Below, in pieces: positions 2,317 through 14,419 of a DNA stretch of 64,000 bases. Source of the stretch: Thermoanaerobaculia bacterium (GTDB lineage Bacteria; Acidobacteriota; Thermoanaerobaculia; Multivoradales; JAIOJS01). The stretch covers positions 75,141-139,140 of the forward strand of contig JAUIDB010000001.1 of assembly GCA_030429235.1 (NCBI GenBank). The letters are read 5' to 3'. Positions within the stretch are counted from its first letter, which is position 1. Every line of letters starts with the position of its first letter. Below the pieces are notes generated by a model. The model was not told where the DNA came from. It made no database searches and worked only from the letters and a program-made list of their open reading frames with translations. A program made the translations under genes and the position numbers.

Positions 2317-2838
2317 TCACCGCAGGTCGGCCAACGCGCGGTCTTCCAAGCGGATCCGATGCCAGAGCAAGACCCCATTGGCCACCCCGAAGCCGACGGC
2401 GGTGGCCCACGCCCCGTGCACCAGGGGCAGAGCAAAGATCTCGACCGCCACCGCCACATAGTTGGGGTGGCGCAGCCAGCGGTACGGCCCCGTCGTCACC
2501 AGCGGCGCGTCGGGAAGGACCCACACGCGGGTGGTCCAGCGCTCCTTCAGGGTGGCGATGACCCAATATCGGGTCGCCTGGGTGGCGGCCACCAGAAGCA
2601 GCAGCACGACCGCCCACCCCGGGCGGAGCGGCCGGTCGAAGAGCAGGACCTCGACCGGCGCCGCCACCAGCCAGAGGCTGTGCAGCAAGACCATGACGGG
2701 GTAGTGCCGTGCCCCCACCTCGATCGCTCCCTCCGCCCGGAGAACCCGCTCGTGCCCCCGAGCCACCAACAGTTCCAGCCCGCGCTCGAGCGCGACGAGA
2801 AGTACCAGGACGACGAAGGCCAGTTGCGAGCTGACCAT
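2317..2838 (-). CDS. Isoprenylcysteine carboxyl methyltransferase (ICMT/PEMT)-family membrane methyltransferase
   Basis: Uses the internal ATG 2838 of track ORF 2317..3474; the upstream 212 codons are Arg/Gly shadow sequence over the PKS. The protein MVSSQLAFVVLVLL... is multi-TM and carries GPYRWLRHPNYVAVAVEIFALPL (RHPxY motif). TGATG overlap with the PKS stop. Confidence 0.75.
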   Translation of the reverse strand: MVSSQLAFVVLVLLVALERGLELLVARGHERVLRAEGAIEVGARHYPVMVLLHSLWLVAAPVEVLLFDRPLRPGWAVVLLLLVAATQATRYWVIATLKERWTTRVWVLPDAPLVTTGPYRWLRHPNYVAVAVEIFALPLVHGAWATAVGFGVANGVLLWHRIRLEDRALADLR

Positions 2839-3884
2839 CAGAACCGAAGCAACACCAACTCGGAGCAGAACCCCGGCCCCATCGCCGTCATCAGCCCCCA
2901 ACTGCCCTCGGGCGGTGGATCCTCGAGCGCCGCCTCGAGCACCAGAAGTACCGAGGTCGAGGAGAGGTTTCCGACCTCCTCGAGGCTCTGCCAGGTGGCG
3001 GCCAGGGCTTCGGGGGGCAGATCGAGCGACTGCTCCATCGCCTGCAGCACCTTGGGGCCGCCCGGGTGGGCGATCCAGCGGGCGATGTCCGAGCGCTCGA
3101 GTCCCTGCTCGGCCAGGAAGGCGTCGATGTCCCCGGCCAGGTGGCGGCTCACCATCTCGGGCACCTCCGCCGAGAGCACGATGCCGAAGCCGCGCTCCGA
3201 AATCTCCCATCCCATGACGCGCTCGGTGTCGCGGTAGAAAACCGAGCGGCTCGCCACCACCTCGGGCCCGCGAGCCCGATGATCCCGGCCGACGAGCACC
3301 ACCGCGGCCGCCCCGTCGCCGAACAGTCCGGTGGCGATGAGATTCGGAATCGAGAGGTCTTCGGCCTGCACCGTGAGAGAACAGAGCTCGACCGACAGCA
3401 GCACCGCCACCTGCTCCGGATACCCCTGTACGTAGTCGGCGGCGCGGGCGACCCCGGCGGCCCCGGCCAGGCACCCGAGGCCGAAGATCGGAACCCGCTT
3501 GACGTCCGGTCGTAGCGGCAGTCGGTTCATCAGTCGCGCGTCGAGCGAGGGTGTCGCCACCCCGGTGACCGTGGTGCTGTACAACGCGTCGACCGACTCC
3601 GCCCCCAGACCGGCCTGGGCCAGGGCAGCTCGCACGGCCTGCGCTCCCAACTCCTGCGCCACCTCGATCCAGGCATCGTTGGCGTCGCCAAACCCGGCGA
3701 GCTCACCGTAGCGTTCGATTGGGAGCGCCAGGTGGCGTCCCCCCACCAGAACGTTTTGGTGCAACTGCCGCAGTCGCCGGGGGTTGAAGAACTGGCTCCC
3801 CCAGCGCTCCTCGAAGGCAGCGAGGAGCTCGGACTGGGCGTAGTAGTGCGGCGGGAAGGCATGCCCGACGCCGGCGACTCGCAC
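2838..3884 (-). CDS. Type III polyketide synthase (chalcone/stilbene synthase-like)
   Basis: 348 aa. The Cys-His-Asn triad contexts are visible: PIFGLGCLAGAAG, WIAHPGGPKVL and VGNLSSTSVL. The thiolase-fold length is typical of bacterial alkylresorcinol/alkylpyrone synthases. Confidence 0.85.
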   Translation of the reverse strand: MRVAGVGHAFPPHYYAQSELLAAFEERWGSQFFNPRRLRQLHQNVLVGGRHLALPIERYGELAGFGDANDAWIEVAQELGAQAVRAALAQAGLGAESVDALYSTTVTGVATPSLDARLMNRLPLRPDVKRVPIFGLGCLAGAAGVARAADYVQGYPEQVAVLLSVELCSLTVQAEDLSIPNLIATGLFGDGAAAVVLVGRDHRARGPEVVASRSVFYRDTERVMGWEISERGFGIVLSAEVPEMVSRHLAGDIDAFLAEQGLERSDIARWIAHPGGPKVLQAMEQSLDLPPEALAATWQSLEEVGNLSSTSVLLVLEAALEDPPPEGSWGLMTAMGPGFCSELVLLRF

Positions 3885-4323: not shown

Positions 4324-4872
4324 TCATAGCCCGCCGCGATCGGCGCACTCTCCCCGCAAGGTACCCAGCGGCCGGTTCTCGCGATCGACCAGACCCTCGC
4401 GCAACAACCAGAACCGCGCATCCTCGGCGTCGCCCTCGAACCAGGCGCGAGCCGAGCCCAGGCGGAAGGTGTAGCCCCAGTGGTCCATGTCGGCCCACAT
4501 GCGGCGACGACCCATCCCCGCCAATCGATCGGCCAGCAGAATCTGCAGGTAGCAGACCGCGTCCTCTTCGTCGTAACCACCGCCGGCATCGGTGTGCAGG
4601 CCCTGCCGCCGGTCGGGGGTCATGCAGATGTAGTGGCAGGCCTCGTGCAGCGCCGACTGCACGGGAGTGTCGGAACGAACGTAGAGCCGGCGATCGATCA
4701 GTCCCGCCTCCGGGTCGCCCCAGTAGCTGCCGGGAATCGACTCCGTCGAGAGCACCTCGTGGACCTCCATCCGGTAGGGCTCGAGCAGCCTCCGCAGGGC
4801 CGTGACCCCCACCTCGTCCACTATCAGCTGCGGGCCCGCCGGCCGCTCCGTCGACTCCGATTCGTTCGCCAT
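4324..4872 (-). CDS. Hypothetical protein with HExxH-like motif (HEACH)
   Basis: 182-aa ORF with normal amino-acid composition. It has SALHEACHYICM and acidic/aromatic-rich segments. It is the first gene of the minus-strand PKS operon. Family not recognised. Confidence 0.5.
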   Translation of the reverse strand: MANESESTERPAGPQLIVDEVGVTALRRLLEPYRMEVHEVLSTESIPGSYWGDPEAGLIDRRLYVRSDTPVQSALHEACHYICMTPDRRQGLHTDAGGGYDEEDAVCYLQILLADRLAGMGRRRMWADMDHWGYTFRLGSARAWFEGDAEDARFWLLREGLVDRENRPLGTLRGECADRGGL

Positions 4873-5008
4873 TCGTCCTCCTCGGTGGGGGCTTCGTCTC
4901 GACCCGCCGTTCCGAGGGTGCTATCTTCGCTCACAGTTCAGCGTCCCCACAACCGACCGGTACCGGTGCTCGCGCCCCGGACTGCCGAGCGAACCAGAGA
5001 GAGAAACC

Positions 5009-7000
5009 GTGTCCGTCCTCGCCGTCGTCGTCCAGGAGAAAGACCTCGCTGGACTCCTGCCCTGGGGCTGTGAGTTCGCCAGCGGCGACGATGCGGGGTT
5101 GGTCCTGGTCGAGCCGGTGCTCGGCCCCCGCCAGGAGCCGGTTCAACTCGACCTGACCGCGGCCGAACCCGAGCCCCTGGTGGCGCACATCCTCGAGTTG
5201 CAGGCCACGACCGAACCACCGCGCGGGGCCGATGGCGAACTCCGCAGCCTGCCCCAGCTGCGCGCCTTTCGCGTGCAGGGACCGGACCTGGTCGCGGCCA
5301 TCCTCGAACTGGTCGACGACCTCGACGGCCAGCTTCTGATCGTGGCCAAACACGAGCGCCTGCGGGGAGCGGGTGCCGACGAGGCGCTGGTGCGACAGCT
5401 CTTCCGTCAATCGCCCTGTGCGACCCTGTTGCTCCGAGCCGCCCCGGAGAGCCGCATGCGACGGCGGCGACTGCTGGTGCCGACGGCTGGCGGCCCCAAC
5501 GCCGAAGCGGCCTTGCGCTGGGCCGACCGCATGGCCCGCCACGCTGATGCCCAGGTGACCGCGCTCTTCGTCGAGCCGCCGATCGGCGAAGACCCCGAAC
5601 TGGTCGGCGAACGGCTGCTCGAGACGGCGATCGCGGACGCCAACCTCGAGGACTCCGAACACATCGAACGCCGCGTCGAGGTGGCCGAGGGAGTGCCCGA
5701 GGCGATCCGGGCCATCGCCGAAGAGGACTACGACATGGTGCTCATCGGAGCCTCGTACCAGGGCTTTGTGCGCCAGATGCTCTTCGGCACCCTGCCGCAG
5801 CACCTGATGGAGGGTGAGGACGCGGTGGCGGTGGGCGTCCTGCGCGCCCGGAAGCGTCTGGTGTCCCGCCTGGTGGAGACTCTGGAAGGTTGGTTCTCCC
5901 GTCGCTTGCCGCAGCTGGCGCGGGACGAGCGGGTCGCCCTGTTCGAGACCTTGCAGTCGCGCTCGCGATGGGACGTCGATTTCCTGCTCCTGATGGCCTT
6001 GTCGACCGCCATCGCGGCCCTCGGTTTGATCCAGTCCTCCGCCGCCGTGGTGATCGGGGCCATGTTGGTGGCGCCGCTGATGACCCCTCTCCTGTCGGCG
6101 GGTCTGGCCCTGGTGCAGGGCAACTCACCGCTCCTGCGGACCGCCAGCCGATCCCTGACCCTGGGTTTTTTGACCGCGGTGGGCATCGGCTTCGTACTCG
6201 GGCTGATCGCCCCGATGCCCGCGCTGACCCCCGAGCTTCTGGCCCGCGGTGCTCCCACTCTGCTCGACCTCGGGGTGGCCTTCCTCTCCGGATTGGCCGC
6301 GGCCTACGCCAGCGGTCGCCCCGCTCTCTCGGCCGCCCTTCCCGGCGTCGCGATCGCCGCCGCCCTGGTGCCACCGATCGCCACCGTCGGCGTCTCTCTA
6401 GCCCACGGGGCGGGACGCAACGCCCTGGGGGCGGCGCTCCTGTTTTCGACCAACGTGGTGGCGATCGTGTTGGGGGCGGCGGTCTGTCTCTACGCGCTGG
6501 GCGTGCGCAGCGGCCCGCGCGGCTCCCGGGTTCCGCTCTGGGTTCGACGTGTCGTCCTGGCGCTGCTCTTCGCCGTCGCCCTGCTGGCCATCCCTCTCAC
6601 CTCCGTCCTGGTTAGTTCGCTGCAGTCCAAAGTCGAGGCTCCCTTCGCCGTCCTGCAACTGGAATCGGCCCTGCAGCAGCGTCTCACCGAGTGGCCGGGA
6701 GTCGAGTTCGAGAGCCTGCGAGTCGTACAGCGAGCACCGATGACCCTCGAGATCCGGGTTGCCGCCGCCGCGCCACCGGGTCCTGAGCTCGCCCGAGAAC
6801 TCGCCGAAACCGCGTCGCTCGTGCTGGAGAATCCAGTGCGCATTCGCCTGGTCGAGACGCTCGTGGTCTACGGCGAAGCCGCCGACGTGGCGCCTCACCC
6901 GACGGACGCTACCTCGGACCCGCTAGCGGTAGCCCCGGCCCAGGAGCCATCCTTACCGCCCGAGGCCGAAACCGAGAGCCCGACCTCTACGGTCGACTGA
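5009..7000 (+). CDS. Universal-stress-protein-domain / DUF389-type membrane protein fusion
   Basis: ORF 4802..7000. GTG 5009 (VSVLAVVVQ) is the likely start. USP-like region: RLLVPTAGGPNAEAALRWA...DYDMVLIGASYQGFVRQMLFGTLPQHLM. It is followed by DUF389-like TM repeats (DVDFLLLMALSTAIAALGLIQSSAAVVIGAMLVAPLMTPLL...GVAIAAALVPPIATVGVSL). Confidence 0.65.
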   Translation: MSVLAVVVQEKDLAGLLPWGCEFASGDDAGLVLVEPVLGPRQEPVQLDLTAAEPEPLVAHILELQATTEPPRGADGELRSLPQLRAFRVQGPDLVAAILELVDDLDGQLLIVAKHERLRGAGADEALVRQLFRQSPCATLLLRAAPESRMRRRRLLVPTAGGPNAEAALRWADRMARHADAQVTALFVEPPIGEDPELVGERLLETAIADANLEDSEHIERRVEVAEGVPEAIRAIAEEDYDMVLIGASYQGFVRQMLFGTLPQHLMEGEDAVAVGVLRARKRLVSRLVETLEGWFSRRLPQLARDERVALFETLQSRSRWDVDFLLLMALSTAIAALGLIQSSAAVVIGAMLVAPLMTPLLSAGLALVQGNSPLLRTASRSLTLGFLTAVGIGFVLGLIAPMPALTPELLARGAPTLLDLGVAFLSGLAAAYASGRPALSAALPGVAIAAALVPPIATVGVSLAHGAGRNALGAALLFSTNVVAIVLGAAVCLYALGVRSGPRGSRVPLWVRRVVLALLFAVALLAIPLTSVLVSSLQSKVEAPFAVLQLESALQQRLTEWPGVEFESLRVVQRAPMTLEIRVAAAAPPGPELARELAETASLVLENPVRIRLVETLVVYGEAADVAPHPTDATSDPLAVAPAQEPSLPPEAETESPTSTVD

Positions 7001-7034
7001 ACCAAGGTCCCGGCACCTCCGTACCAACCTCCAG

Positions 7035-7826
7035 ATGCTCACCCCGCCCCCCCATCCCCGGCCCCCGCTGAAAACCCTGGCCGATCCCACCCTGGTGGTC
7101 TTCACCCTGGGCAGCGAGGCCGAAGCCCGCCGCAAGCAGCTGCTGGGCCCGGCGCACTACGACCTCGAACGAACCCTCTTTGCCAGCGAGCTCCAGCGGC
7201 TGCTGGCCTGCGGCGAGGAGGCCGGATACCGCCTCGCGGTGGCGGCGCCGCGACCGACGGCAGCCGGACACCACCACGTCGAGCGCGTGGGCCAGCCTTC
7301 CGGCTCCTTCGGCCGTCGGCTCGCCGGGTCGATCGCTCTCGCCTGTCCCGACCCGACGGCGCCCTGGGTGGTGGTCGGCCTCGACTGCCCCGAGCTCGGA
7401 GAGGGCCTGCTGCGACGGACCCGGAACCTACTGCGCTCCGACCCCGCGGACCGCCGAGTGGTGCTCGGCCCGAGCCGGGACGGTGGTCTCTACCTGATCG
7501 CCGCCAACCGTCCTTTGGCAGCCCTGCTGCAACAGGCCTCCTGGGGCCACCGACGAACCGCCCAGAGCCTGCGCCGCCTGCTGCTCGACGCCGGCCTCGA
7601 GATCGTCGAGCTTCCCCTCCTCGGCGATCTCGACTGCAGCGGCGACCTTTGGCGCTGGTTGAGCAAGCCCACGGGGCACGCCTCGCCCTCCGCGGGGCCG
7701 GGTTCGACCGCCCTCCGCCGAGCGATCCGCCGGCGCTTGGCTCGTCCCCCAGCGGCGGCTGTCGCCGAGAGAGTCTCCGCCGCGCCCACGCGCTCCCCGG
7801 TCGGCAGCCGCGCCCCGCCGAACTGA
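7035..7826 (+). CDS. DUF2064-like (TIGR04282-type, rSAM/selenodomain-associated transferase-like) protein
   Basis: 263 aa. TLVVFTLGSEAEARRKQLL...VVVGLDCPELG...VLGPSRDGGLYLIAAN resembles the DUF2064 nucleotide-diphospho-sugar-transferase-like family. Assignment is from memory of the motifs only. Confidence 0.5.
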   Translation: MLTPPPHPRPPLKTLADPTLVVFTLGSEAEARRKQLLGPAHYDLERTLFASELQRLLACGEEAGYRLAVAAPRPTAAGHHHVERVGQPSGSFGRRLAGSIALACPDPTAPWVVVGLDCPELGEGLLRRTRNLLRSDPADRRVVLGPSRDGGLYLIAANRPLAALLQQASWGHRRTAQSLRRLLLDAGLEIVELPLLGDLDCSGDLWRWLSKPTGHASPSAGPGSTALRRAIRRRLARPPAAAVAERVSAAPTRSPVGSRAPPN

Positions 7827-7930
7827 GCCGAGGCCCGAGCCGGCTTCGCTCCTTCGCGTCATCCCTGCTTCCGGCGCCCGCTCCGGCGCGGAGCTCTACC
7901 TCCCCGATCCCACAGCCACGAGAGAACCCG

Positions 7931-9091
7931 ATGCACACCAGCCCCGAAGTCGAATCCACCGTTCGCGACCGCTACGCCCAAGGAGCGGGACGCGCCGTCC
8001 CTGAACTCTGCTGTCCAGTCGACTACGACCCCCGCTACCTCGAAGCGATCCCCTCCGAGGTCCTCGAGCGCGACTACGGCTGCGGCGACCCTTCGGCCCA
8101 CCTTCGGCCAGGGGAGACCGTCCTCGACCTCGGTTCGGGTACTGGCAAGATCTGCTTCATCGCGGCCCAGGTGGTCGGCCCCGAGGGCAAGGTCATCGGA
8201 ATTGACATGACGCCGGAGATGTTGGCGGTCGCACGGCAGAACGCGCCGCTGGTCGCCGAGCGGATCGGCTACGACAACGTCGAGTTCCGGCGCGGCCGAA
8301 TCCAAGACCTGGCCCTCGACCTCGACCGCCTCGAGGCGACCCTGGCCGACGAGCCCGTCGACAGCGCGGACGGCTTCCTGAGGGCCGAGGCGAGGGCCGA
8401 GACGCTGCGCCGCGAAGAGCCGATGGTGCCCACCGAAGGGGTGGACGTGGTGGTCTCGAACTGCGTCCTGAACCTGGTCGATTCTCAACTCAAGCCCCGG
8501 CTCTTCGAAGAGATCCATCGCGTCCTCAAGCGCGGGGGCCGCGCCGTCATCTCCGACATCGTGGCCGACGAAGAGGTGCCGGAGGCGCTGCAAAACGACC
8601 CCGAGCTGTGGAGCGGTTGCATCTCGGGCGCCCTGACCGAGGCGGGCTTTCTCCGCGCCTTCGAGGCCGCCGGTTTCTACGGGATCCGGATCCTCGAACG
8701 ACAAGTCGAGCCTTGGCAGACGGTCGAGGGAATCGAGTTCCGCTCGCTCACCGTCGAAGCCTTCAAGGGCAAAGAGGGTGCCTGCTGGGAGCGCAACCAG
8801 GCGGTGGTCTACAAGGGGCCGTTCCGCCGCGTGCTGGACGACGACGGCCACGAGATGGAGCGGGGCCTCCGCTACGCGGTGTGCGACAAGACCTACCAGA
8901 TCTACCGCCAGTCGCCCTACCGCGAGCACTTCGAGTTCATCGAACCCAGAGAGGCCGTGGCCCTCGCGGAGGCCGAACCCTTCGACTGCTCGCGCACGCC
9001 CTTGCGGCACCCGCACGAGACCAAGGGCGAGGGGTACTCGACCACCCAGGTCTCAGAGACCCCTTGCTGCGCTTCGGACGGTTGCGGTTGA
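7931..9091 (+). CDS. arsM: ArsM-like SAM-dependent (arsenite-type) methyltransferase
   Basis: Uses the internal ATG 7931 of ORF 7649..9091 (MHTSPEVESTVRDRYAQGAG). Cys contexts typical of As(III) S-adenosylmethionine methyltransferases are present: ELCCPVDY, ERDYGCGDP, SNCVLNLV and WSGCISGALTEAGF. SAM motif I is VLDLGSGTGK. The tail is Cys-rich (CCASDGCG). Confidence 0.65.
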   Translation: MHTSPEVESTVRDRYAQGAGRAVPELCCPVDYDPRYLEAIPSEVLERDYGCGDPSAHLRPGETVLDLGSGTGKICFIAAQVVGPEGKVIGIDMTPEMLAVARQNAPLVAERIGYDNVEFRRGRIQDLALDLDRLEATLADEPVDSADGFLRAEARAETLRREEPMVPTEGVDVVVSNCVLNLVDSQLKPRLFEEIHRVLKRGGRAVISDIVADEEVPEALQNDPELWSGCISGALTEAGFLRAFEAAGFYGIRILERQVEPWQTVEGIEFRSLTVEAFKGKEGACWERNQAVVYKGPFRRVLDDDGHEMERGLRYAVCDKTYQIYRQSPYREHFEFIEPREAVALAEAEPFDCSRTPLRHPHETKGEGYSTTQVSETPCCASDGCG

Positions 9092-9377
9092 GCTTCCCCA
9101 GACTCCACACCGTTCAGGGGTGCCGGAGCTGGCCCTCCGCGGGGGGGCTTGCGATCGGGCGAATCGTGGCGGTGGCCGGGCGACAGCCGAGCCCCGGCCC
9201 GACCACGATTCCCCGTCCTAGCGGTCCCCTCCAGCCCCTCGGCGAGGCCCCCTCGGAACCGCGGGAACGCGGCCCGCTCGTCCCCGAAACGCCGACCCTG
9301 AAGGGGCCGATGCCGCCCGCTCCGAGTCTCCGGCGCGACGCCGGACGACCTCTCGGCCGACCGACGGAGACTCCCTG

Positions 9378-10238
9378 ATGACGGTACCCCGCGTCGCCCT
9401 CGGTTCTCTCGACACGCTCTGGTTTCAAGTGGCGGGAACCGTCTGCAATCTGGCCTGCACCCACTGCTTCATCTCCTGCTCGCCGACCAATCGAACCCAC
9501 GACATGATGTCGTTGGAGGAGGTAGCGAGCCACCTGGAAGATGCCACCCGGCTCGGCGTGAAGGAGTACTACTTCACCGGCGGCGAGCCCTTTCTCAACC
9601 CCGAGATGGAGGCGATTCTCGAGGCGACCTTGGCGGTGGGCCCCGCCTCGGTCCTGACCAACGGGTTGCTGCTGGATCCCGCTCGCTGCCAGCGGCTCGC
9701 CGCGCTGGCAGCCGCTAGCGAATACTCGCTGGATCTACGGGTCTCCCTCGATGGTTACACCGCCGAAGGGCACGACGCGATCCGCGGCGAGGGCACCTTC
9801 GATCGCGCCCTCGAAGGAATCCGCCATCTGCATGCAGCGGGACTCGAGCCCGTGATCACCGTCACCGAGGTCTACGACGACAACGGTTCTGTGGCCGGCA
9901 AAGAGCGCTTCTTCTCCCTGATGCGCGAACTGGACATCGAGCACCCGCGTCTCAAGATGATGCCGGTGTTCCAAATCGGCGCCGAAGCGGAGCGGCGCGG
10001 AGCCTACGAAAGCTGGCAACGCCTGCGCGACGAAGACGCTCCGGCCGACGGCTGGGACCACCTCCAGTGCTCGACCTGCCGCATGGTGACCGACCAGGGG
10101 GTCTGGGTGTGCCCGATCTTGGTCAACGAACCCTCCGGCAAGATGGGAGATCGCCTCGCCGACACCCTGGGCGACTTCCCTCTCGCCCACCCCGCCTGCT
10201 GGACCTGCCACGTCTACGGGGTGACCTGCCGCACTTAG
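9378..10238 (+). CDS. Radical SAM enzyme with Cys-rich C-terminal domain (possibly ArsS-related)
   Basis: 286 aa. It has a CxxxCxxC cluster (CNLACTHC), a GGEP SAM-binding motif (YYFTGGEPFLNPEM) and a Cys-rich tail (HLQCSTCRMVTDQGVWVCPILV...HPACWTCHVYGVTCRT). Confidence 0.75.
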   Translation: MTVPRVALGSLDTLWFQVAGTVCNLACTHCFISCSPTNRTHDMMSLEEVASHLEDATRLGVKEYYFTGGEPFLNPEMEAILEATLAVGPASVLTNGLLLDPARCQRLAALAAASEYSLDLRVSLDGYTAEGHDAIRGEGTFDRALEGIRHLHAAGLEPVITVTEVYDDNGSVAGKERFFSLMRELDIEHPRLKMMPVFQIGAEAERRGAYESWQRLRDEDAPADGWDHLQCSTCRMVTDQGVWVCPILVNEPSGKMGDRLADTLGDFPLAHPACWTCHVYGVTCRT

Positions 10239-10252
10239 TACGAGGAGAGATC

Positions 10253-11287
10253 GTGTCGCAACGCATACCCGAGGATCCCGATCTGCAGGCTCGACGCGCC
10301 GCCCAGCGCGCTCGCCTCGCCGCCCACCGTGGGCTCGCCACCTGGGGAGAGCGCCTGGTGCCCCTCGCCACCTTCCAAGCGGCATCGGCCCGCGCCGGTC
10401 GCTCCCTCGATTCCGCCGCGCGCGACGCCGCCGTCGCGTCGTTTCTCGCCCCGAGGAGCGATCCGACCCCCGTCGAGGGGCCCTTCCGTCGCATCGCGGT
10501 GTGCGGTGGCGTCTACAACAACCACTACGCCTTGGCCGCCTGGATCACGGCGGCGCGGCAGCGCGGAGCAGAAGCCCTGTACTGCCTGGGAGACCTCGGG
10601 GGCTTCGGACCCTCGCCCCACAAGGTCTGGCCGCTTCTGGAAGAGCATCGGGTCCGGGTCAGCCAGGGCAACTACGAGCAGTCCCTGGCGAGTGGTCGCG
10701 AAGACTGCAACTGCGGCTACACCGACCCCCGCGACAACCACTTCGCTCGCCTCTCCTACGAGTACACCGCGCAGCGCTGCTCGGCCGCCTTCAAGCAGTG
10801 GATGGGCGAGCTGCCGGAGCGGCGACGGGTGGCCTTGCACTCCCCCTCCGGGAGGCGGCGGGAACTTCTGTTGGTGCACGGCTCACCGCGCCGGGTCAAC
10901 GAGTTCCTGTTCGAGAGTACGACGCCGGCGCCCTACCTCGAGGCCCTGCTCGACCAGCAACAGGCCGACGCCGTGCTCTGCACGCACTCGGGGCTGCACT
11001 GGCACCGACCTCTGCCCTCCGGTCGCGACCTGGTCAACGTCGGGGTTCTCGGACGCCCCGCCAACGACGGTCGCACCGAGGTCTGGTTCGCGCTGCTCGA
11101 ACTCGACGAGCCCAGCGGAGACCTGCAGGTCGAACTCTGCCCCCTGCCCTACGACCACCTGGCGCTGGCCACCGAGATGCGCCACGAACGGCTGCCCGAA
11201 GAGTTCGTAGCGACCATCGAACAGGGCTGGTGGACGACCTGCCTCGAGATCTTGCCGGCCCGCGAGCGCGCGCGGGGCCGTTTCTGA
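10253..11287 (+). CDS. Calcineurin-like metallophosphoesterase
   Basis: ORF 10067..11287. GTG 10253 is preceded by AGGAGAG. Motifs: IAVCGGVYNNHYAL, CLGDLGGFGP, VSQGNYE, LLLVHGSPR and VLCTHSGLHW, which correspond to the DxH/GD/GNH/H/GH phosphoesterase signature series. Confidence 0.7.
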   Translation: MSQRIPEDPDLQARRAAQRARLAAHRGLATWGERLVPLATFQAASARAGRSLDSAARDAAVASFLAPRSDPTPVEGPFRRIAVCGGVYNNHYALAAWITAARQRGAEALYCLGDLGGFGPSPHKVWPLLEEHRVRVSQGNYEQSLASGREDCNCGYTDPRDNHFARLSYEYTAQRCSAAFKQWMGELPERRRVALHSPSGRRRELLLVHGSPRRVNEFLFESTTPAPYLEALLDQQQADAVLCTHSGLHWHRPLPSGRDLVNVGVLGRPANDGRTEVWFALLELDEPSGDLQVELCPLPYDHLALATEMRHERLPEEFVATIEQGWWTTCLEILPARERARGRF

Positions 11288-11318
11288 AACCCAATACGAG
11301 CCCTACCGAAGGAGCATC

Positions 11319-12536
11319 ATGGCCCCTCCTACCCTGACCCCTGACCTCCCCCTGGCGATCCTCGGCGCCGGCCCGATCGGGCTCGAGGCGGCCCTGGCGG
11401 CGGCGCAGGCGAGCCTGCCGTTCGTGGTCCTGGAGGCCGGCGACGAAGTGGCCTCCCACGTCGCCGACTGGGGGCATGTGCACCTCTTCACCCCCTGGTC
11501 GATGAGCGTCTCGCCCCGCATGCGCCAGCGACTCGCGACCCGCGGCCTGGCTCCACCCAACGACGACGAGTGTCCGACCGGCGACGCCCTGCGGCAGAGG
11601 GTCCTCCTACCGGTGGCCACCGACCCCTCGATCGCCCCCCACCTGCGCCTCGGGACGCGCGTCGTCTCGATCGGCCGACAGGGACTGCTCAAACACCAGG
11701 AGATCGCTACTGCGGCCCGCGCCGCCCGCCCGTTCAGGCTGCTCCTGGAAACGGCGGAGGGCGAAGAGATCCTGCTCGCCGGTGCCGTCCTCGATTGCAC
11801 CGGAAGCTGGAGCTCGCCCCACCGGCTCGGCGATGGCGGGTTGCCTGCCCCCGGCGAACGCCGTCTCGAAGACCAAATCTGTCGACGGATCCCCGACCTC
11901 GTCCGCGACGCCACCGACTGGGTCGGCCGGCGCATCCTGCTGGTCGGAGGGGGCCATTCCGCGCAGACTGCGGCCCGCGACCTGGCACAGCTGGCGACCG
12001 AGCACCCGGCGACCCAGATCCTCTGGGCGCTGCGCGACGAGCGACCGCAGTTCGCGCCGCTGGTCGACGACCCGCTGCCCGCGCGGCGGGCCCTCGGCGA
12101 GGATGCCGCTCGACTGTTCGCCGGCGGTTGTCCCTCCCTGGCGGTACGCACCGGCGTCGTCGTGGAGGCGTTGGCCGCACACGACGGCGCGATCCACGCC
12201 ACCCTGAGGGGGCCCGGCGAGCGGACGGAGACCGTGACCGTCGACCGGATCGTGAGCCTGGTCGGGGCGACCGGTGATGCCTCGCTCTATCGGCAACTGC
12301 AGATTCACGAGTGCTACGCCACGTCGGGTCCGATGAAGCTCGCCGCGGCGTTGCTCGGAGCTGCCGGCGGGGACTGCCTCGAGCAGACCTCCCACGGCGT
12401 CGAGGCCCTGCGGTCGCCGGAACCCAACTTCTTCGTCCTCGGAATCAAGTCGTACGGTCGGAACAACACCTTCCTGCTGCGCGTCGGCTGGGAACAGGTC
12501 GACGAGGTGATCGCCGAGCTCGCCTCGGTCGGCTGA
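11319..12536 (+). CDS. FAD/NAD(P)-binding oxidoreductase (two dinucleotide-binding domains)
   Basis: 405 aa. It has an N-terminal GxGxxG (LAILGAGPIGLEAAL) and a second Rossmann motif (ILLVGGGHSAQTAARDL). Confidence 0.7.
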   Translation: MAPPTLTPDLPLAILGAGPIGLEAALAAAQASLPFVVLEAGDEVASHVADWGHVHLFTPWSMSVSPRMRQRLATRGLAPPNDDECPTGDALRQRVLLPVATDPSIAPHLRLGTRVVSIGRQGLLKHQEIATAARAARPFRLLLETAEGEEILLAGAVLDCTGSWSSPHRLGDGGLPAPGERRLEDQICRRIPDLVRDATDWVGRRILLVGGGHSAQTAARDLAQLATEHPATQILWALRDERPQFAPLVDDPLPARRALGEDAARLFAGGCPSLAVRTGVVVEALAAHDGAIHATLRGPGERTETVTVDRIVSLVGATGDASLYRQLQIHECYATSGPMKLAAALLGAAGGDCLEQTSHGVEALRSPEPNFFVLGIKSYGRNNTFLLRVGWEQVDEVIAELASVG

Positions 12537-12568
12537 TGCCTCGGTGGGCGTGATACCCTGCCCGCCGC

Positions 12569-13663
12569 ATGCGAATCTGGAGCCCGTCCCAACCTCCTCA
12601 CCAAGCCGCCGGCGGCGTCGGGGTGTTGGTCACCAACCTCGGAACCCCGGACGCGCCGACGGCTCCGGCGCTGCGTCGCTACCTGCGGCAGTTCCTCTCG
12701 GACCACCGGGTCATCGATCTCCCCCGCTGGAAGTGGTGGCCGATCCTCCACCTGTTCGTCCTCACCACCCGGCCCCGTCGGTCGGCGGCCCTCTACCGGG
12801 AGATCTGGACCGAGCAGGGGTCGCCGCTCCTCCTCGGCACCCAGCGGGTCGCGGCCGCGTTGCAAGAAGAGCTCGCGCGCCGCCTGGATGGTGACGTCGC
12901 CACCACGATCGGCATGCGCTACGGCAACCCGTCGATCCGCCGTGGGCTGCGGCAATTGGCCGAACAGGGTTGCGACCGCATCCTGGTGCTTCCCCTCTAC
13001 CCCCACTACTCCGCCACCTCGACCGCATCGACCTACGACGCGATCTTCGCCGAGCTCGCCACCTGGCGCCGACAGCCCGAATTGCGCACCATCCACGGGT
13101 TCCACGACGAACCGGGATTGGTCGAGGCGCTGGCCGCTTCGGTGCGAGAGGTCTGGGCCGAGGGTGGGCCGCCCGACCAGCTCCTCCTCTCGTACCACGG
13201 CATCCCACGCCGCTACTTCGACGAGGGCGATCCCTACTTCTGCCTCTGCCACAAGACCTCTCGCCTGCTCGCCGAGGCTCTCGAGCTGGCACCGGGGCGG
13301 TACCAGACCACCTTCCAGAGTCTCTTCGGCAAGGAGGAGTGGCTGAAGCCCTACACTGACGAGACGGTGGCCGCTTTGGGTCGGGGCGGCGGCAGCCTCG
13401 ACGTGATCTGCCCCGGCTTCTCGCTCGACTGCCTCGAGACCCTGGAGGAGATCGACGGCCTGAACCGGAAGATCTTCGCCGAAGCCGGCGGTGGCCGATT
13501 CCGCTTCATCCCCTGCCTCAACGACCGACCCGACCACCTTCGGTTCCTCGCCGATCTGGCCGAGCGCCACCTCTCCGGCTGGACCGTCCGCTCAGCGTCG
13601 GAGCGGCGTACCGCCGGTCGCGCCTCGGCCGAGCGGGCCCAGGCTCTCGCCCGGACCTCCTGA
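12569..13663 (+). CDS. hemH: Ferrochelatase
   Basis: 364 aa. GVLVTNLGTPDAPTAPALRRYLRQFLSDHRVIDLPRWKWWPIL...LVLPLYPHYSATSTAS...LLLSYHGIPRRY...EEWLKPYTDE are typical HemH blocks. Confidence 0.85.
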   Translation: MRIWSPSQPPHQAAGGVGVLVTNLGTPDAPTAPALRRYLRQFLSDHRVIDLPRWKWWPILHLFVLTTRPRRSAALYREIWTEQGSPLLLGTQRVAAALQEELARRLDGDVATTIGMRYGNPSIRRGLRQLAEQGCDRILVLPLYPHYSATSTASTYDAIFAELATWRRQPELRTIHGFHDEPGLVEALAASVREVWAEGGPPDQLLLSYHGIPRRYFDEGDPYFCLCHKTSRLLAEALELAPGRYQTTFQSLFGKEEWLKPYTDETVAALGRGGGSLDVICPGFSLDCLETLEEIDGLNRKIFAEAGGGRFRFIPCLNDRPDHLRFLADLAERHLSGWTVRSASERRTAGRASAERAQALARTS

Positions 13664-13684
13664 CCCCGGTCGACGGATCGCGGC

Positions 13685-14419
13685 TCAGCGGGGTTCGGCC
13701 CGCGCCAGTTCGCTCTGGAAGTCGGGGCGCGAGGTGCTGAGGATCATCATCTTCTGCCAGATCTTGCGCGACTGGCTGTCGGTCAGGGCCTCGATCTCGT
13801 CGACCGCCGCCAGCGCCACCGAATCATCGAAACTCTGCGCGTAGAGCGCGGCGATCTTGGAGAGATGCGACAGGAGCTCCGAGCAGTAATCGAGGTACCG
13901 GGAGAGCTGAAAGGGCGTGAGCAGGCGCTCCGGCGACGACGCCGTGTCTTCACCGGGGAAGAGGATGCGCTCCGGGTCCTTGGTCAGTTGGTGCATGTCG
14001 ATGACGTGGGCCAACGAGCGCAGCTCGTGCAGGGCGCGCAAGGCGCGCTGCCGTTTGACCCTGACCTCGACCGTGACCAGAAACACGATCGCCGCCCCGA
14101 TCAGGATCACGTCGTTGATGCCGGCCTCGACGACCTGCAGAAAAAAGGCCAGGTCGCGCAGCTCCTCGCCGCTCGGCCGGAGGTTGACCAGCACCAGACC
14201 CAGGGCGGCGATCATCGCAGCCGCGAAGGTCCAGGTCGCCAGTCGCAAGGGGTAGATCGGACGGGCGATGGCCCGCGACGTCTCCCGGGCGGCGCGGGCG
14301 ACATCGAGGACCTCGGAAGAGACCGCGGCCAGACCAGACCCCGGAAAGCGCTCGCTGATTCGAGCGGTCAGCGTGCGCAGAGTGCGCACGATCGGGTCGG
14401 CCTGCAGTTCGCGGTACAT
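13685..14419 (-). CDS. Hypothetical membrane protein
   Basis: 244-aa ORF with ordinary composition and two clear hydrophobic spans (WTFAAAMIAALGLVLVNL, VILIGAAIVFLVTV). Family not recognised. Confidence 0.5.
   Translation of the reverse strand: MYRELQADPIVRTLRTLTARISERFPGSGLAAVSSEVLDVARAARETSRAIARPIYPLRLATWTFAAAMIAALGLVLVNLRPSGEELRDLAFFLQVVEAGINDVILIGAAIVFLVTVEVRVKRQRALRALHELRSLAHVIDMHQLTKDPERILFPGEDTASSPERLLTPFQLSRYLDYCSELLSHLSKIAALYAQSFDDSVALAAVDEIEALTDSQSRKIWQKMMILSTSRPDFQSELARAEPR

Follow-up and report, generated by a model that had tools for sequence, protein, structure and literature searches.

A block of five same-strand genes at positions 7035-12536 of a 64,000-nucleotide stretch of the Thermoanaerobaculia bacterium contig JAUIDB010000001.1 (hereafter, the window) is, with somewhat better than even confidence, a member of a widespread arsenic-transforming module, whose predicted route would lead from As(V) reduction through carbon-arsenic (C-As) chemistry by an enzyme of the radical S-adenosylmethionine (SAM) type to methylation and oxidation. 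In gene order, its products are a DUF2064 protein, an ArsM-like As(III) SAM methyltransferase, the radical SAM (rSAM) enzyme, a protein resembling metallophosphoesterases (MPE-like) and a flavoprotein with two dinucleotide-binding domains. The arsenic module is the most economical explanation: arsenic-specific relatives are on record independently for the methyltransferase, for the MPE-like protein and for the flavoprotein, and all three are bound to the rSAM enzyme by synteny and gene fusions.

The families of these five genes and the bounds of the block had been given in an original prediction, made from the letters of the window, and scans of open reading frames (ORFs), Pfam and NCBIfam bore them out. 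Its proposal of a variant organoarsenical pathway gains support, the MPE-like protein and the flavoprotein now being linked to arsenic by their homologues. It had set these two proteins down as partners that do not fit; they are indeed absent from the ArsS and ArsL pathways, but both have homologues in ars operons or ars islands.

ArsS opened the field of arsenosugars and ArsL that of the antibiotic arsinothricin, and to our knowledge these two are the sole enzymes known to forge C-As bonds by radical chemistry. Both are rSAM enzymes, ArsS using a 5'-deoxyadenosyl group and ArsL, which binds As(III) through three cysteines, a 3-amino-3-carboxypropyl group (for ArsL, PMC8552651). The kind of system described here, in which an rSAM enzyme and ArsM yield organoarsenicals, is known, while its rSAM family, its MPE-like partner and its flavoprotein lie outside the described pathways; full-text literature searches found no description of the cluster or of the rSAM family.

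An unnamed radical SAM family

The rSAM enzyme (9378-10238, + strand; 286 amino acids) matches PF04055 Radical_SAM with 82.9 bits, and its Pfam matches are limited to Radical_SAM and Fer4_12. The CNLACTHC motif and the cysteine-rich tail that had been quoted for it are both found in the translation. In an alignment of 17 diverse members, the CX3CX2C motif at Cys23/27/30 is invariant, as are the C-terminal Cys231, Cys245, Cys274 and Cys277, and Cys284 is at least 90% conserved, giving a tail with the spacing CX13CX28CX2CX6C. PF13186, the SPASM domain, was not matched in the Pfam scan, though five C-terminal cysteines are conserved. The AlphaFold 2 (AF2) model has a mean predicted local distance difference test score (pLDDT) of 92.6, and its top Foldseek matches are SkfB, BlsE, anSME, SuiB, EpeE and MoaA (TMq 0.57-0.69); by this model, the unnamed family to which the enzyme belongs is probably twitch/SPASM-like.

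The family is large. It counts more than 7000 homologues, of which most come from Thermoanaerobaculia with 75-80% identity and all bear no other name than “radical SAM protein”, and an exhaustive search of cluster representatives returned about 118 rSAM clusters (50% identity) at E<1e-30. The window enzyme reaches no NCBIfam family cutoff, those of peptide maturases, ArsS and Rv1681 included, so that it falls in no well-characterised unrelated family; the best curated family is Rv1681, with 114.4 bits against a cutoff of 380 over residues 21-189. The doubt expressed earlier that it resembles ArsS was well placed: TIGR04167 gives 66.2 bits against a cutoff of 300, the match is confined to core residues 10-156, and there is no Pfam match to the ArsS-type C-terminal domain, on which grounds its identity with ArsS was ruled out. 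Identity with ArsL was ruled out by the published features of that enzyme, which has 428 amino acids, carries its cluster motif at about 194-216 (with CX3CX2C at 194-201) and binds As(III) through (R)CCxxC at its C-terminus, whereas the window enzyme has its motif at residues 23-30.

Conserved gene neighbourhoods and gene fusions

Synteny was sampled by a scan of one genome per species, which gave 80 loci, and five further loci brought the sample to 85; genes were compared by tblastn and ORF clustering. By record title, the loci come from Acidobacteriota, Elusimicrobiota, Fibrobacteres, Deltaproteobacteria/Myxococcales/Bradymonadia, Latescibacterota, Ktedonobacteraceae and Eisenbacteria, as well as from Bacteroidetes, Planctomycetota, KSB1, Omnitrophota, Candidatus Udaeobacter and Gemmatimonadota, and the rSAM family spans at least 10 phyla. 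Of the 77 loci with at least 1.2 kb of downstream sequence, 72 have an MPE-like gene on the same strand no more than 3 kb downstream of the rSAM gene. This recurrence, across so many phyla, argues that the pairing of the two is not due to chance. The flavoprotein gene is found within 3 kb of the rSAM gene in 36 of the 60 loci with room on both sides, downstream of it in Thermoanaerobaculia and upstream elsewhere. Among the 39 loci whose flanks both measure 6 kb or more, the MPE-like gene occurs in 35, the flavoprotein gene in 29, DUF2064 in 12, hemH in 10, the methyltransferase in eight and an AhpD-like gene in six. The block is thus syntenic well beyond its close relatives, and the five-gene unit proposed at first gives way to a conserved core of rSAM and MPE-like genes, with the flavoprotein often added, which the methyltransferase and DUF2064 join frequently but facultatively.

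Two gene orders recur. One runs DUF2064, methyltransferase, in some cases pstSCAB-like genes, rSAM, MPE-like, flavoprotein and in some cases hemH (the window, L087 and L089); the other runs DUF2064, AhpD-like, flavoprotein, rSAM and MPE-like (L039, L041 and L046). Fusions tie the same proteins together. P0140, a protein of 618 amino acids confirmed at the DNA level in locus L086, joins an rSAM domain to an ArsM-like domain with the motifs ELCCP, YGCGSP, SNCVINL and WSECISGA, while P0126 and P0144 carry the flavoprotein N-terminal to the rSAM enzyme. In actinobacterial metagenome-assembled genomes (MAGs; L091 15183-16859, - strand, and L092), an MPE-like domain 48% identical to that of the window is fused to an Rv1681-type rSAM domain (265 bits). 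Genes for a PhnD-like binding protein, for a permease and for an ATPase follow, as does one for a methyltransferase with 60% identity to that of the window; a flavoprotein 59% identical to that of the window is encoded 2 kb from the actinobacterial MPE-rSAM cluster.

These actinobacterial clusters lead to the uncharacterised pair formed by the rSAM protein Rv1681 and the PhnD-like, SBP-like protein Rv1680 of Mycobacterium tuberculosis (NF049973, NF049985), which may be a distant cousin of the arsenic-linked system. Rv1681 gives the window rSAM enzyme its best curated rSAM score (114 bits), and the actinobacterial relative joins an MPE-like domain to an Rv1681-type rSAM near a PhnD-like protein and a methyltransferase of the clade seen in the window. 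The likeness to the window is by NCBIfam models only, and it has its limits: the Rv1681 type is without the cysteine-rich tail of the window enzyme, and both the window score and the 265 bits of the L091 fusion are below the cutoff of 380. For the PhnD-like protein beside the L091 fusion, there is besides a weak match to the “Rv1680 family SBP-like” model.

Among cultured bacteria, Roseomonas haemaphysalidis 546 has a related cluster on its plasmid p546-1 (L096, record 49216-67899), in the order TIGR04282, DUF547, rSAM, rSAM, PhnD/E/ATPase and MPE-like. One of its rSAM proteins is TrsS/Tes-like with 459 amino acids, the other has 315 amino acids and is 36% identical to that of the window, and the MPE-like protein is 37% identical. 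Divergent genes in L096 encode two flavin adenine dinucleotide (FAD) oxidoreductases, of which one is of the “N-terminal to SelD” type, a MauE/DoxX protein, a VTT-domain protein and a GT2 glycosyltransferase.

The same loci bear on another possibility, namely that the rSAM enzyme is a maturase of ribosomally synthesised and post-translationally modified peptides (RiPPs), or a haem or cofactor enzyme, with arsenic-type neighbours that are incidental. The top Foldseek and NCBIfam matches do include SkfB, SuiB, anSME, ScmF, AhbD, NirJ and MoaA, and hemH sits close behind the cluster both in the window and in L087, but the matches are far under the family cutoffs and concern the generic core, no protease or exporter partner is present, and the hemH linkage is confined to Thermoanaerobaculia/Acidobacteriota relatives (12 of the 85 loci), where inserted genes sometimes split it off. 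The fusion partners of the enzyme, moreover, are a methyltransferase, a flavoprotein and an MPE-like protein rather than peptide- or haem-pathway proteins. A search for conserved small ORFs (25-89 amino acids) within 4 kb of the rSAM gene in the 85 loci yielded only antisense shadow ORFs of conserved genes, and the RiPP maturase was rejected for want of any conserved sense-strand small ORF there. Taken as a whole, we hold the peptide or haem explanation to be very improbable.

The methyltransferase and the accessory families

The methyltransferase gene (7931-9091, +; 386 amino acids) lies in an ORF that opens at 7649; its true start is the ATG at 7931, as judged by homologues of 385-388 amino acids and by the public gene call. 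The motifs ELCCP, YGCGDP, SNCVLNL and WSGCISGA that had pointed to an As(III) methyltransferase are all found in the translation. PF13847 (111 bits, cutoff 27) identifies a class I SAM-binding methyltransferase domain, which carries an insertion of about 28 amino acids, and among solved structures, arsenic methyltransferases are the top matches. The best NCBIfam model is NF040538, arsinothricin-type ArsM, with 327 bits (cutoff 500), followed by PRK11873 with 208.7 bits (cutoff 263) and NF038099 with 118.5 bits (cutoff 400), none of the cutoffs being reached; the protein thus scores 327 bits for the arsinothricin type against 118 for the arsenosugar type.

In a phmmer alignment with CmArsM (4fr0/4kw7), Cys51, Cys177 and Cys229 of the window protein, numbered by hand from the translation, align with the As(III) ligands Cys72, Cys174 and Cys224, the conserved contexts pairing YGCGD with YGCGS, SNCVLNL with SNCVCNL and SGCISGAL with GECLGGAL (window first). 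These three conserved ArsM cysteines, whose lack would have told against the assignment, are present. A CC pair at residues 27-28, outside the HMMER alignment, precedes Cys51 by 23-24 residues, compared with the 28 residues between Cys44 and Cys72 of CmArsM. As judged by its sequence, the methyltransferase is a genuine ArsM-type protein. Its tail reads CCxxxGCG, and methyltransferases of the clade (window, L057 7867-9042, L091 11445-12581 and P0140) end in a short cysteine motif (CCASDGCG, CCGPDGCC, PCC and CGPKCC), which recalls the arsenic-binding CCxxC of ArsL and is missing from the alignable part of CmArsM.

The DUF2064 gene (7035-7826, +), a facultative cluster member whose product has a predicted CofC/MobA-like nucleotidyl- or glycosyl-transferase fold, had been assigned to DUF2064/TIGR04282. 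The first part of that assignment stands, PF09837 being matched with 63.6 bits (cutoff 25.8), while TIGR04282 (“arsenosugar biosynthesis glycosyltransferase”) stays below its cutoff with 72.4 bits against 134; the homologue in L057 gives 118.6, and the Roseomonas plasmid copy is annotated as a member of the TIGR04282 family. Homologues adjoin the rSAM gene in 19 of the 85 loci, outside Acidobacteriota for example in L046 (a Deltaproteobacteria MAG), L057 and L061. With 124 bits against 120, the AhpD-like protein encoded in L057 clears the cutoff of TIGR04169, “arsenosugar biosynthesis-associated peroxidase-like”.

These families invite comparison with the two described pathways. The ArsM and ArsS system of Synechocystis (TIGR04167) shares with the window an As(III) SAM methyltransferase and an rSAM enzyme with CX3CX2C and a cysteine-rich C-terminus, and DUF2064/TIGR04282-like and AhpD-like TIGR04169 accessory families are common to both, but the window rSAM enzyme's C-terminal region is another one, the MPE-like and flavoprotein partners are foreign to the ArsS system, and the window methyltransferase is closer to the arsinothricin type. 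The ArsL, ArsM and ArsQ cluster of Burkholderia gladioli (PMC8552651) is nearer in its methyltransferase, BgArsM having cysteines 30, 54, 181 and 233 in 378 residues, nearly colinear with those of the window protein, which is of similar length and likewise ends in a cysteine motif; the logic of an rSAM enzyme making R-As(III) that ArsM then methylates would also fit the window. Differing from it, the window has no ArsQ, and its methyltransferase is under the NF040538 cutoff. That the block is simply one of these known pathways, arsenosugar (ArsM with ArsS) or arsinothricin (ArsM with ArsL and ArsQ), in divergent sequences is suggested by the best model of the methyltransferase and by the arsenosugar-associated names that NCBIfam gives to the DUF2064 and AhpD-like families. 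We nevertheless regard it as improbable, given an rSAM enzyme that fails the ArsS model and departs from ArsL in length and tail, the lack of an ArsQ-like permease, and two partners that neither described pathway includes.

The MPE-like protein has homologues in ars operons

The MPE-like gene (10253-11287, +; GTG start and 344 amino acids, the length in the public gene call) encodes a protein that gives 18 bits for Pfam Metallophos, under the cutoff of 21.5, and has no NCBIfam family match. The label of calcineurin-like phosphoesterase given to it before stands as far as MPE homology goes and fails on the canonical DxH motif, which is lost, and on the Metallophos cutoff. Compared with the canonical MPE structures 3rqz and 3qfm, motif I has changed from DxH to GxY (GGVYNN in the window), and GNH is replaced by GNY. 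The consensus of 78 rSAM-linked members reads GGxYxN, LGDxGxFGP, GNY, DCxCGYxDPxDN, HGSPR, THxG, GRPxNDG and GWWTTCLExLP, with the CxC pair conserved in at least 90% of them. The window protein also carries an N-terminal extension of about 75 amino acids, a feature of Thermoanaerobaculia.

A tblastn search of PLSDB plasmids returned homologues of 27-31% identity over 70-80% of the length (E 1e-25 to 1e-33), all of them within canonical ars operons of cultured bacteria from four genera. The orders are ArsR, DUF6428, MPE, GNAT, ACR3 and ArsC on a plasmid of Hymenobacter sp. DG25B; ArsR, ArsN2, ArsM, MPE and ACR3 on one of Adhaeribacter radiodurans; ArsR, MPE and ArsM in Paraclostridium bifermentans; and ArsM, ArsR, MPE, ArsC, ArsC and MIP in Rubrobacter tropicus. 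In the alignment of MPE-like proteins with the ars-operon MPEs, the CxC pair is invariant, C74/C76 of Paraclostridium corresponding to Cys152/Cys154 of the window protein. The two clades differ elsewhere: ars-operon homologues have SD(V/I)H(G/A/S)N where the window has GGVYNN, and the rSAM-linked clade has lost DxH, has THxG for GHTH and bears an extra C-terminal GWWTTCLE with a third invariant cysteine.

In anaerobic arsenic methylators, an ars-operon MPE gene, orf1, was recently reported near arsM and directly downstream of arsR (PMC12124457, 2025). Its product is reported to share about 40% identity with Car1, the MPE-type enzyme by which Rufibacter tibetensis reduces As(V), and to carry Cys74/Cys76, which are essential in Car1 (PMC12124457, citing Shen et al. 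2024). Compared with Car1 through the ars-operon homologues and not through Car1's own sequence, the window protein has the CxC aligned with Cys74/Cys76, the GD, GNY and HGSP motifs, and ArsM-type neighbours in common with that type, while the rSAM-linked clade has GGxYxN for DxH and THxG for GHTH and is set beside an rSAM gene rather than ArsR and ACR3. By these homologies, the MPE-like protein may stand in for the missing arsC. Its three invariant cysteines can also be set beside the three cysteines on which ArsL presents As(III).

The flavoprotein has homologues beside arsR genes

The flavoprotein gene (11319-12536, +; 405 amino acids) matches Pyr_redox_2 with 37.9 bits and has GxGxxG motifs for FAD and for NAD(P)H. 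In its AF2 model (pLDDT 80), the invariant Cys332 (HECYAT) and Cys353 lie in a loop of low confidence. The nearest structures by Foldseek are TrxR-like ferredoxin-NADP reductases, the bacillithiol disulfide reductase YpdA/Bdr and N-hydroxylating monooxygenases. The ArsO model NF040505 gives 23 bits against a cutoff of 425, and a Streptomyces ArsO is 31% identical over 219 amino acids.

Homologues of 29-40% identity over 91% of the flavoprotein occur in 150 plasmid records. Six plasmids were sampled, from Rhodococcus, Shinella, Hydrogenophaga, Streptomyces sp. FR-008, Bacillus and Nitrobacter, and in all six the homologue (31-38% identity) lies directly downstream of an ArsR-family gene, followed in five by a gene for a major facilitator superfamily (MFS) transporter. 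Four of the six are embedded in larger arsenic islands, with ArsC, ArsC and ACR3 in Shinella; trxB, ArsC, ArsR, ACR3 and ArsO in Streptomyces; ArsN1 in Bacillus; and the Aio large subunit, ArsH, ArsC and MIP in Nitrobacter. Like the plasmid proteins and ArsO, the window flavoprotein has a two-Rossmann architecture; unlike the former, which have 450-490 amino acids and stand with an ArsR gene and an MFS pump, it is shorter, is paired with an rSAM enzyme, to which it is fused in relatives, and has no regulator or pump beside it. The ArsR-flavoprotein-MFS unit is probably of the arsR-arsV-arsW type. ArsV is described as a flavin monooxygenase that oxidises MAs(III), and it is reported to act on Sb(III) as well. 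The plasmid pairs of ArsR and FAD oxidoreductase (L102 4529-7528, L101 3911-7495, L103 4529-7551, L104 3282-7552, L106 4044-6973 and L105 3825-5715) span Actinomycetota, Pseudomonadota and Bacillota, and the oxidoreductase has a generic RefSeq annotation.

Canonical ars genes are missing around the cluster

The window was queried with 21 diverse ArsR, ACR3, ArsC, ArsH, ArsN2, ArsO, MFS and MIP proteins from the plasmid loci, together with ArsR, ArsB and ArsC of Escherichia coli and ArsC of Bacillus subtilis, the last of these as an approximate sequence. In the 64 kb, these queries matched nothing but, weakly, the flavoprotein itself through ArsO, which confirms the earlier statement that no arsR, arsB/acr3 or arsC lies there; in 92 metagenomic loci, they matched one ArsR-like gene (L048) and, weakly, one ArsO-type protein (L051). 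With neither regulator nor efflux pump, the cluster would have a biosynthetic or transforming rather than a resistance role.

This lack of ArsR, ACR3 and ArsC near the cluster is at the same time the main point that speaks against an arsenic module, and arsenic-responsive regulation is not evident in the window or the 92 loci. Several further points weigh in the same direction. The DxH metal ligands that ars-operon homologues keep are lost in the rSAM-linked MPE clade, which may not have retained reductase activity, and the tie of the window protein to Car1 is indirect, running through homologues in ars operons and through a citation at second hand. For the flavoprotein, the role is ambiguous, as its nearest structures range over ferredoxin-NADP reductases, disulfide reductases and monooxygenases. 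The methyltransferase gene lies within 6 kb of the rSAM gene in 14 of the 85 loci. The closest structures of the rSAM enzyme are hydrogen-abstracting twitch/SPASM enzymes, not ArsS or ArsL, and 75-80% identity across many Thermoanaerobaculia, together with the broad spread of the family, would also fit a housekeeping role apart from a sporadic toxic element.

Some of these points would also suit a substrate other than arsenic, such as antimony, selenium, tellurium, a reduced phosphorus oxyanion (phosphite or phosphonate) or a thiol, the arsenic-type annotations then reflecting shared ancestry only. Besides the want of ars regulator and efflux genes in the window and in almost every metagenomic locus, the strong conservation and wide distribution, the transporters embedded in relatives' clusters, which are nominally for phosphate, phosphite or phosphonate, the DxH-less MPE-like clade, which may have a new function, and the reported action of ArsV on Sb(III) can all be set on this side. 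Yet relatives in arsenic operons are known independently for the methyltransferase, for the MPE-like protein and for the flavoprotein, and the cysteines of the ArsM set, like the CxC pair, are ligands for soft metalloids, ill-suited to phosphorus. We consider a non-arsenic substrate unlikely, and the possibility of another metalloid or thiol substrate raised in the original prediction is now less likely than arsenic, given the arsenic-linked partners.

Proposed route, transporters and significance

From the homologies, conserved motifs, cross-phylum synteny and fusions observed, we infer each chemical step of the favoured arsenic-transforming module, and its product, as follows. Arsenate would enter the cell, for which some relatives' clusters encode PstSCAB-, PiT- or PhnD-type importers and that of the window does not. 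The CxC pair of the MPE-like protein would reduce As(V) or hold As(III) and hand the arsenic to the rSAM enzyme, which would cleave SAM so that a SAM-derived carbon radical adds to As(III), forming a C-As bond by analogy with ArsS and ArsL; its C-terminal cysteines could hold an auxiliary Fe-S cluster or arsenic. The arsinothricin-type ArsM-like enzyme would then methylate the trivalent organoarsenical, and the flavoprotein might oxidise the trivalent product to the pentavalent form or feed electrons to the rSAM enzyme or the reductase. The DUF2064 (TIGR04282-like) protein, and in relatives the AhpD-like (TIGR04169) protein, may modify or protect the product.

Transporters of the type that handles tetrahedral oxyanions are present in the clusters of some relatives, with PstS-type ATP-binding cassette (ABC) systems in L006, L009, L012 and L089, a PiT/PHO4-like permease in L057, and PhnD-type ABC transporters in L091/L092 and Roseomonas, and importer genes are found neither in the window cluster nor in most loci. 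The PhnD-type binding proteins and permeases of the actinobacterial and Roseomonas clusters bring up a catabolic or detoxifying use of the same module, phosphonates, to which such proteins bind, being structural analogues of arsonates: methylarsonate or another arsonate, taken up by transporters of the phosphonate or phosphate type, would be brought to trivalent arsenic by the MPE-like protein and its C-As bond cleaved or rearranged by the rSAM enzyme, an oxygen-independent counterpart of ArsI, while the methyltransferase and flavoprotein would handle the arsenic species released. If they are of the ArsV type, the ArsR-linked flavoprotein homologues resemble determinants of resistance to trivalent organoarsenicals, and a 2026 preprint calls anaerobic arsenic demethylation comparatively less resolved. 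Against it, construction rather than degradation is the better fit for the fusion of rSAM and ArsM-like domains and for neighbours from the biosynthesis-associated families TIGR04282 and TIGR04169, C-As bonds are made by the two arsenic rSAM enzymes so far characterised, and the window and most loci are without an importer. We accordingly give the whole catabolic scheme, handling of the released species included, a low probability.

In its most ambitious form, the arsenic-transforming reading would make this a third widespread arsenic-dedicated rSAM family within a self-contained assembly line (MPE reductase or presenter, C-As bond formation, methylation, oxidation) that makes a new organoarsenical, a proposal we regard as plausible but somewhat short of even probability. 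If it holds, soil and sediment members of the Thermoanaerobaculia, Planctomycetota, Gemmatimonadota, Eisenbacteria and other groups would be the makers, with distant cousins reaching as far as Rv1680/Rv1681. An unrecognised organoarsenical, or an anaerobic C-As transformation, would then be common in soil and sediment bacteria, which would matter for the speciation of arsenic in groundwater and paddy soils and for efforts to find natural products that contain it. The results further suggest that the recently described arsenate reductase of MPE type occurs in a second context and in a form that has diverged, and many metagenomic “arsM” reads may come from biosynthetic-type clusters rather than from detoxification operons. 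The cultured Roseomonas haemaphysalidis 546, with its related cluster, would be an entry point for experiments.

Neighbouring genes and other features of the window

The window has a G+C content of about 68%, and its nearest relatives are MAGs of Thermoanaerobaculia (Acidobacteriota). With the ferrochelatase gene hemH (12569-13663, +; TIGR00109, 289 bits), the block makes up a run of six + strand genes from 7035 to 13663, and of the proteins scanned, HemH alone reaches a curated NCBIfam cutoff. The intergenic gaps measure 104 nucleotides between DUF2064 and the methyltransferase, 286 between the methyltransferase and rSAM genes, 14 between the rSAM and MPE-like genes (given before as 15), 31 between the MPE-like and flavoprotein genes and 32 between the flavoprotein gene and hemH, the last two as previously stated. 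Although hemH follows so closely, its linkage is lineage-specific, and it is probably not a functional member of the cluster. Scans of 6500-14000 for promoter, terminator and Rfam elements gave no match.

The 286-nucleotide spacing between the methyltransferase and rSAM genes (9092-9377) stands out as unusual within the block. The interval is absent in L087, where the two genes overlap, and in L089, L006, L009 and L012 a pstSCAB-like phosphate-type ABC transporter of about 3.4 kb sits between them; the ancestor of the window may have carried a transporter in this gap and since lost it.

Three other candidate members were examined and set aside. GNAT genes between the rSAM and MPE-like genes of L037, considered for an ArsN-type self-resistance, are generic (ArsN1a, 35 bits against 170) and confined to that single locus; an Mrp/ApbC Fe-S carrier gene upstream occurs in five loci only; and a PNP/HpnG-like nucleosidase beside the flavoprotein gene, considered as a general partner, is confined to L091 and L092. 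In these two near-identical loci, a DeoD/HpnG-like gene of the nucleoside phosphorylase family lies divergently beside the flavoprotein gene (L091 7124-7927, - strand). HpnG acts after the adenosylating rSAM enzyme HpnH, taking adenine off its product, and by that analogy the neighbour hints at adenosyl chemistry in L091 and L092.

Upstream of DUF2064, a gene at 4802-7000 (+) encodes a fusion of 732 amino acids, joining a universal stress protein domain (PF00582) to a hydrophobic DUF389/TIGR00271 domain, which is not kept beside the cluster in relatives. Farther upstream, the ORF at 2838-3884 (-) groups by ORF clustering with a family of about 349 amino acids from 19 loci, in the position that a type III polyketide synthase gene takes in relatives (L002, L004 and L089). 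Several Thermoanaerobaculia have, next to the synthase gene, genes for an ICMT/PEMT-like methyltransferase and for AMP-binding, carrier-protein, FAD_binding_3 and YceI proteins; this conserved group, divergent and upstream of the arsenic-type cluster, is a candidate alkylresorcinol-like lipid cluster.

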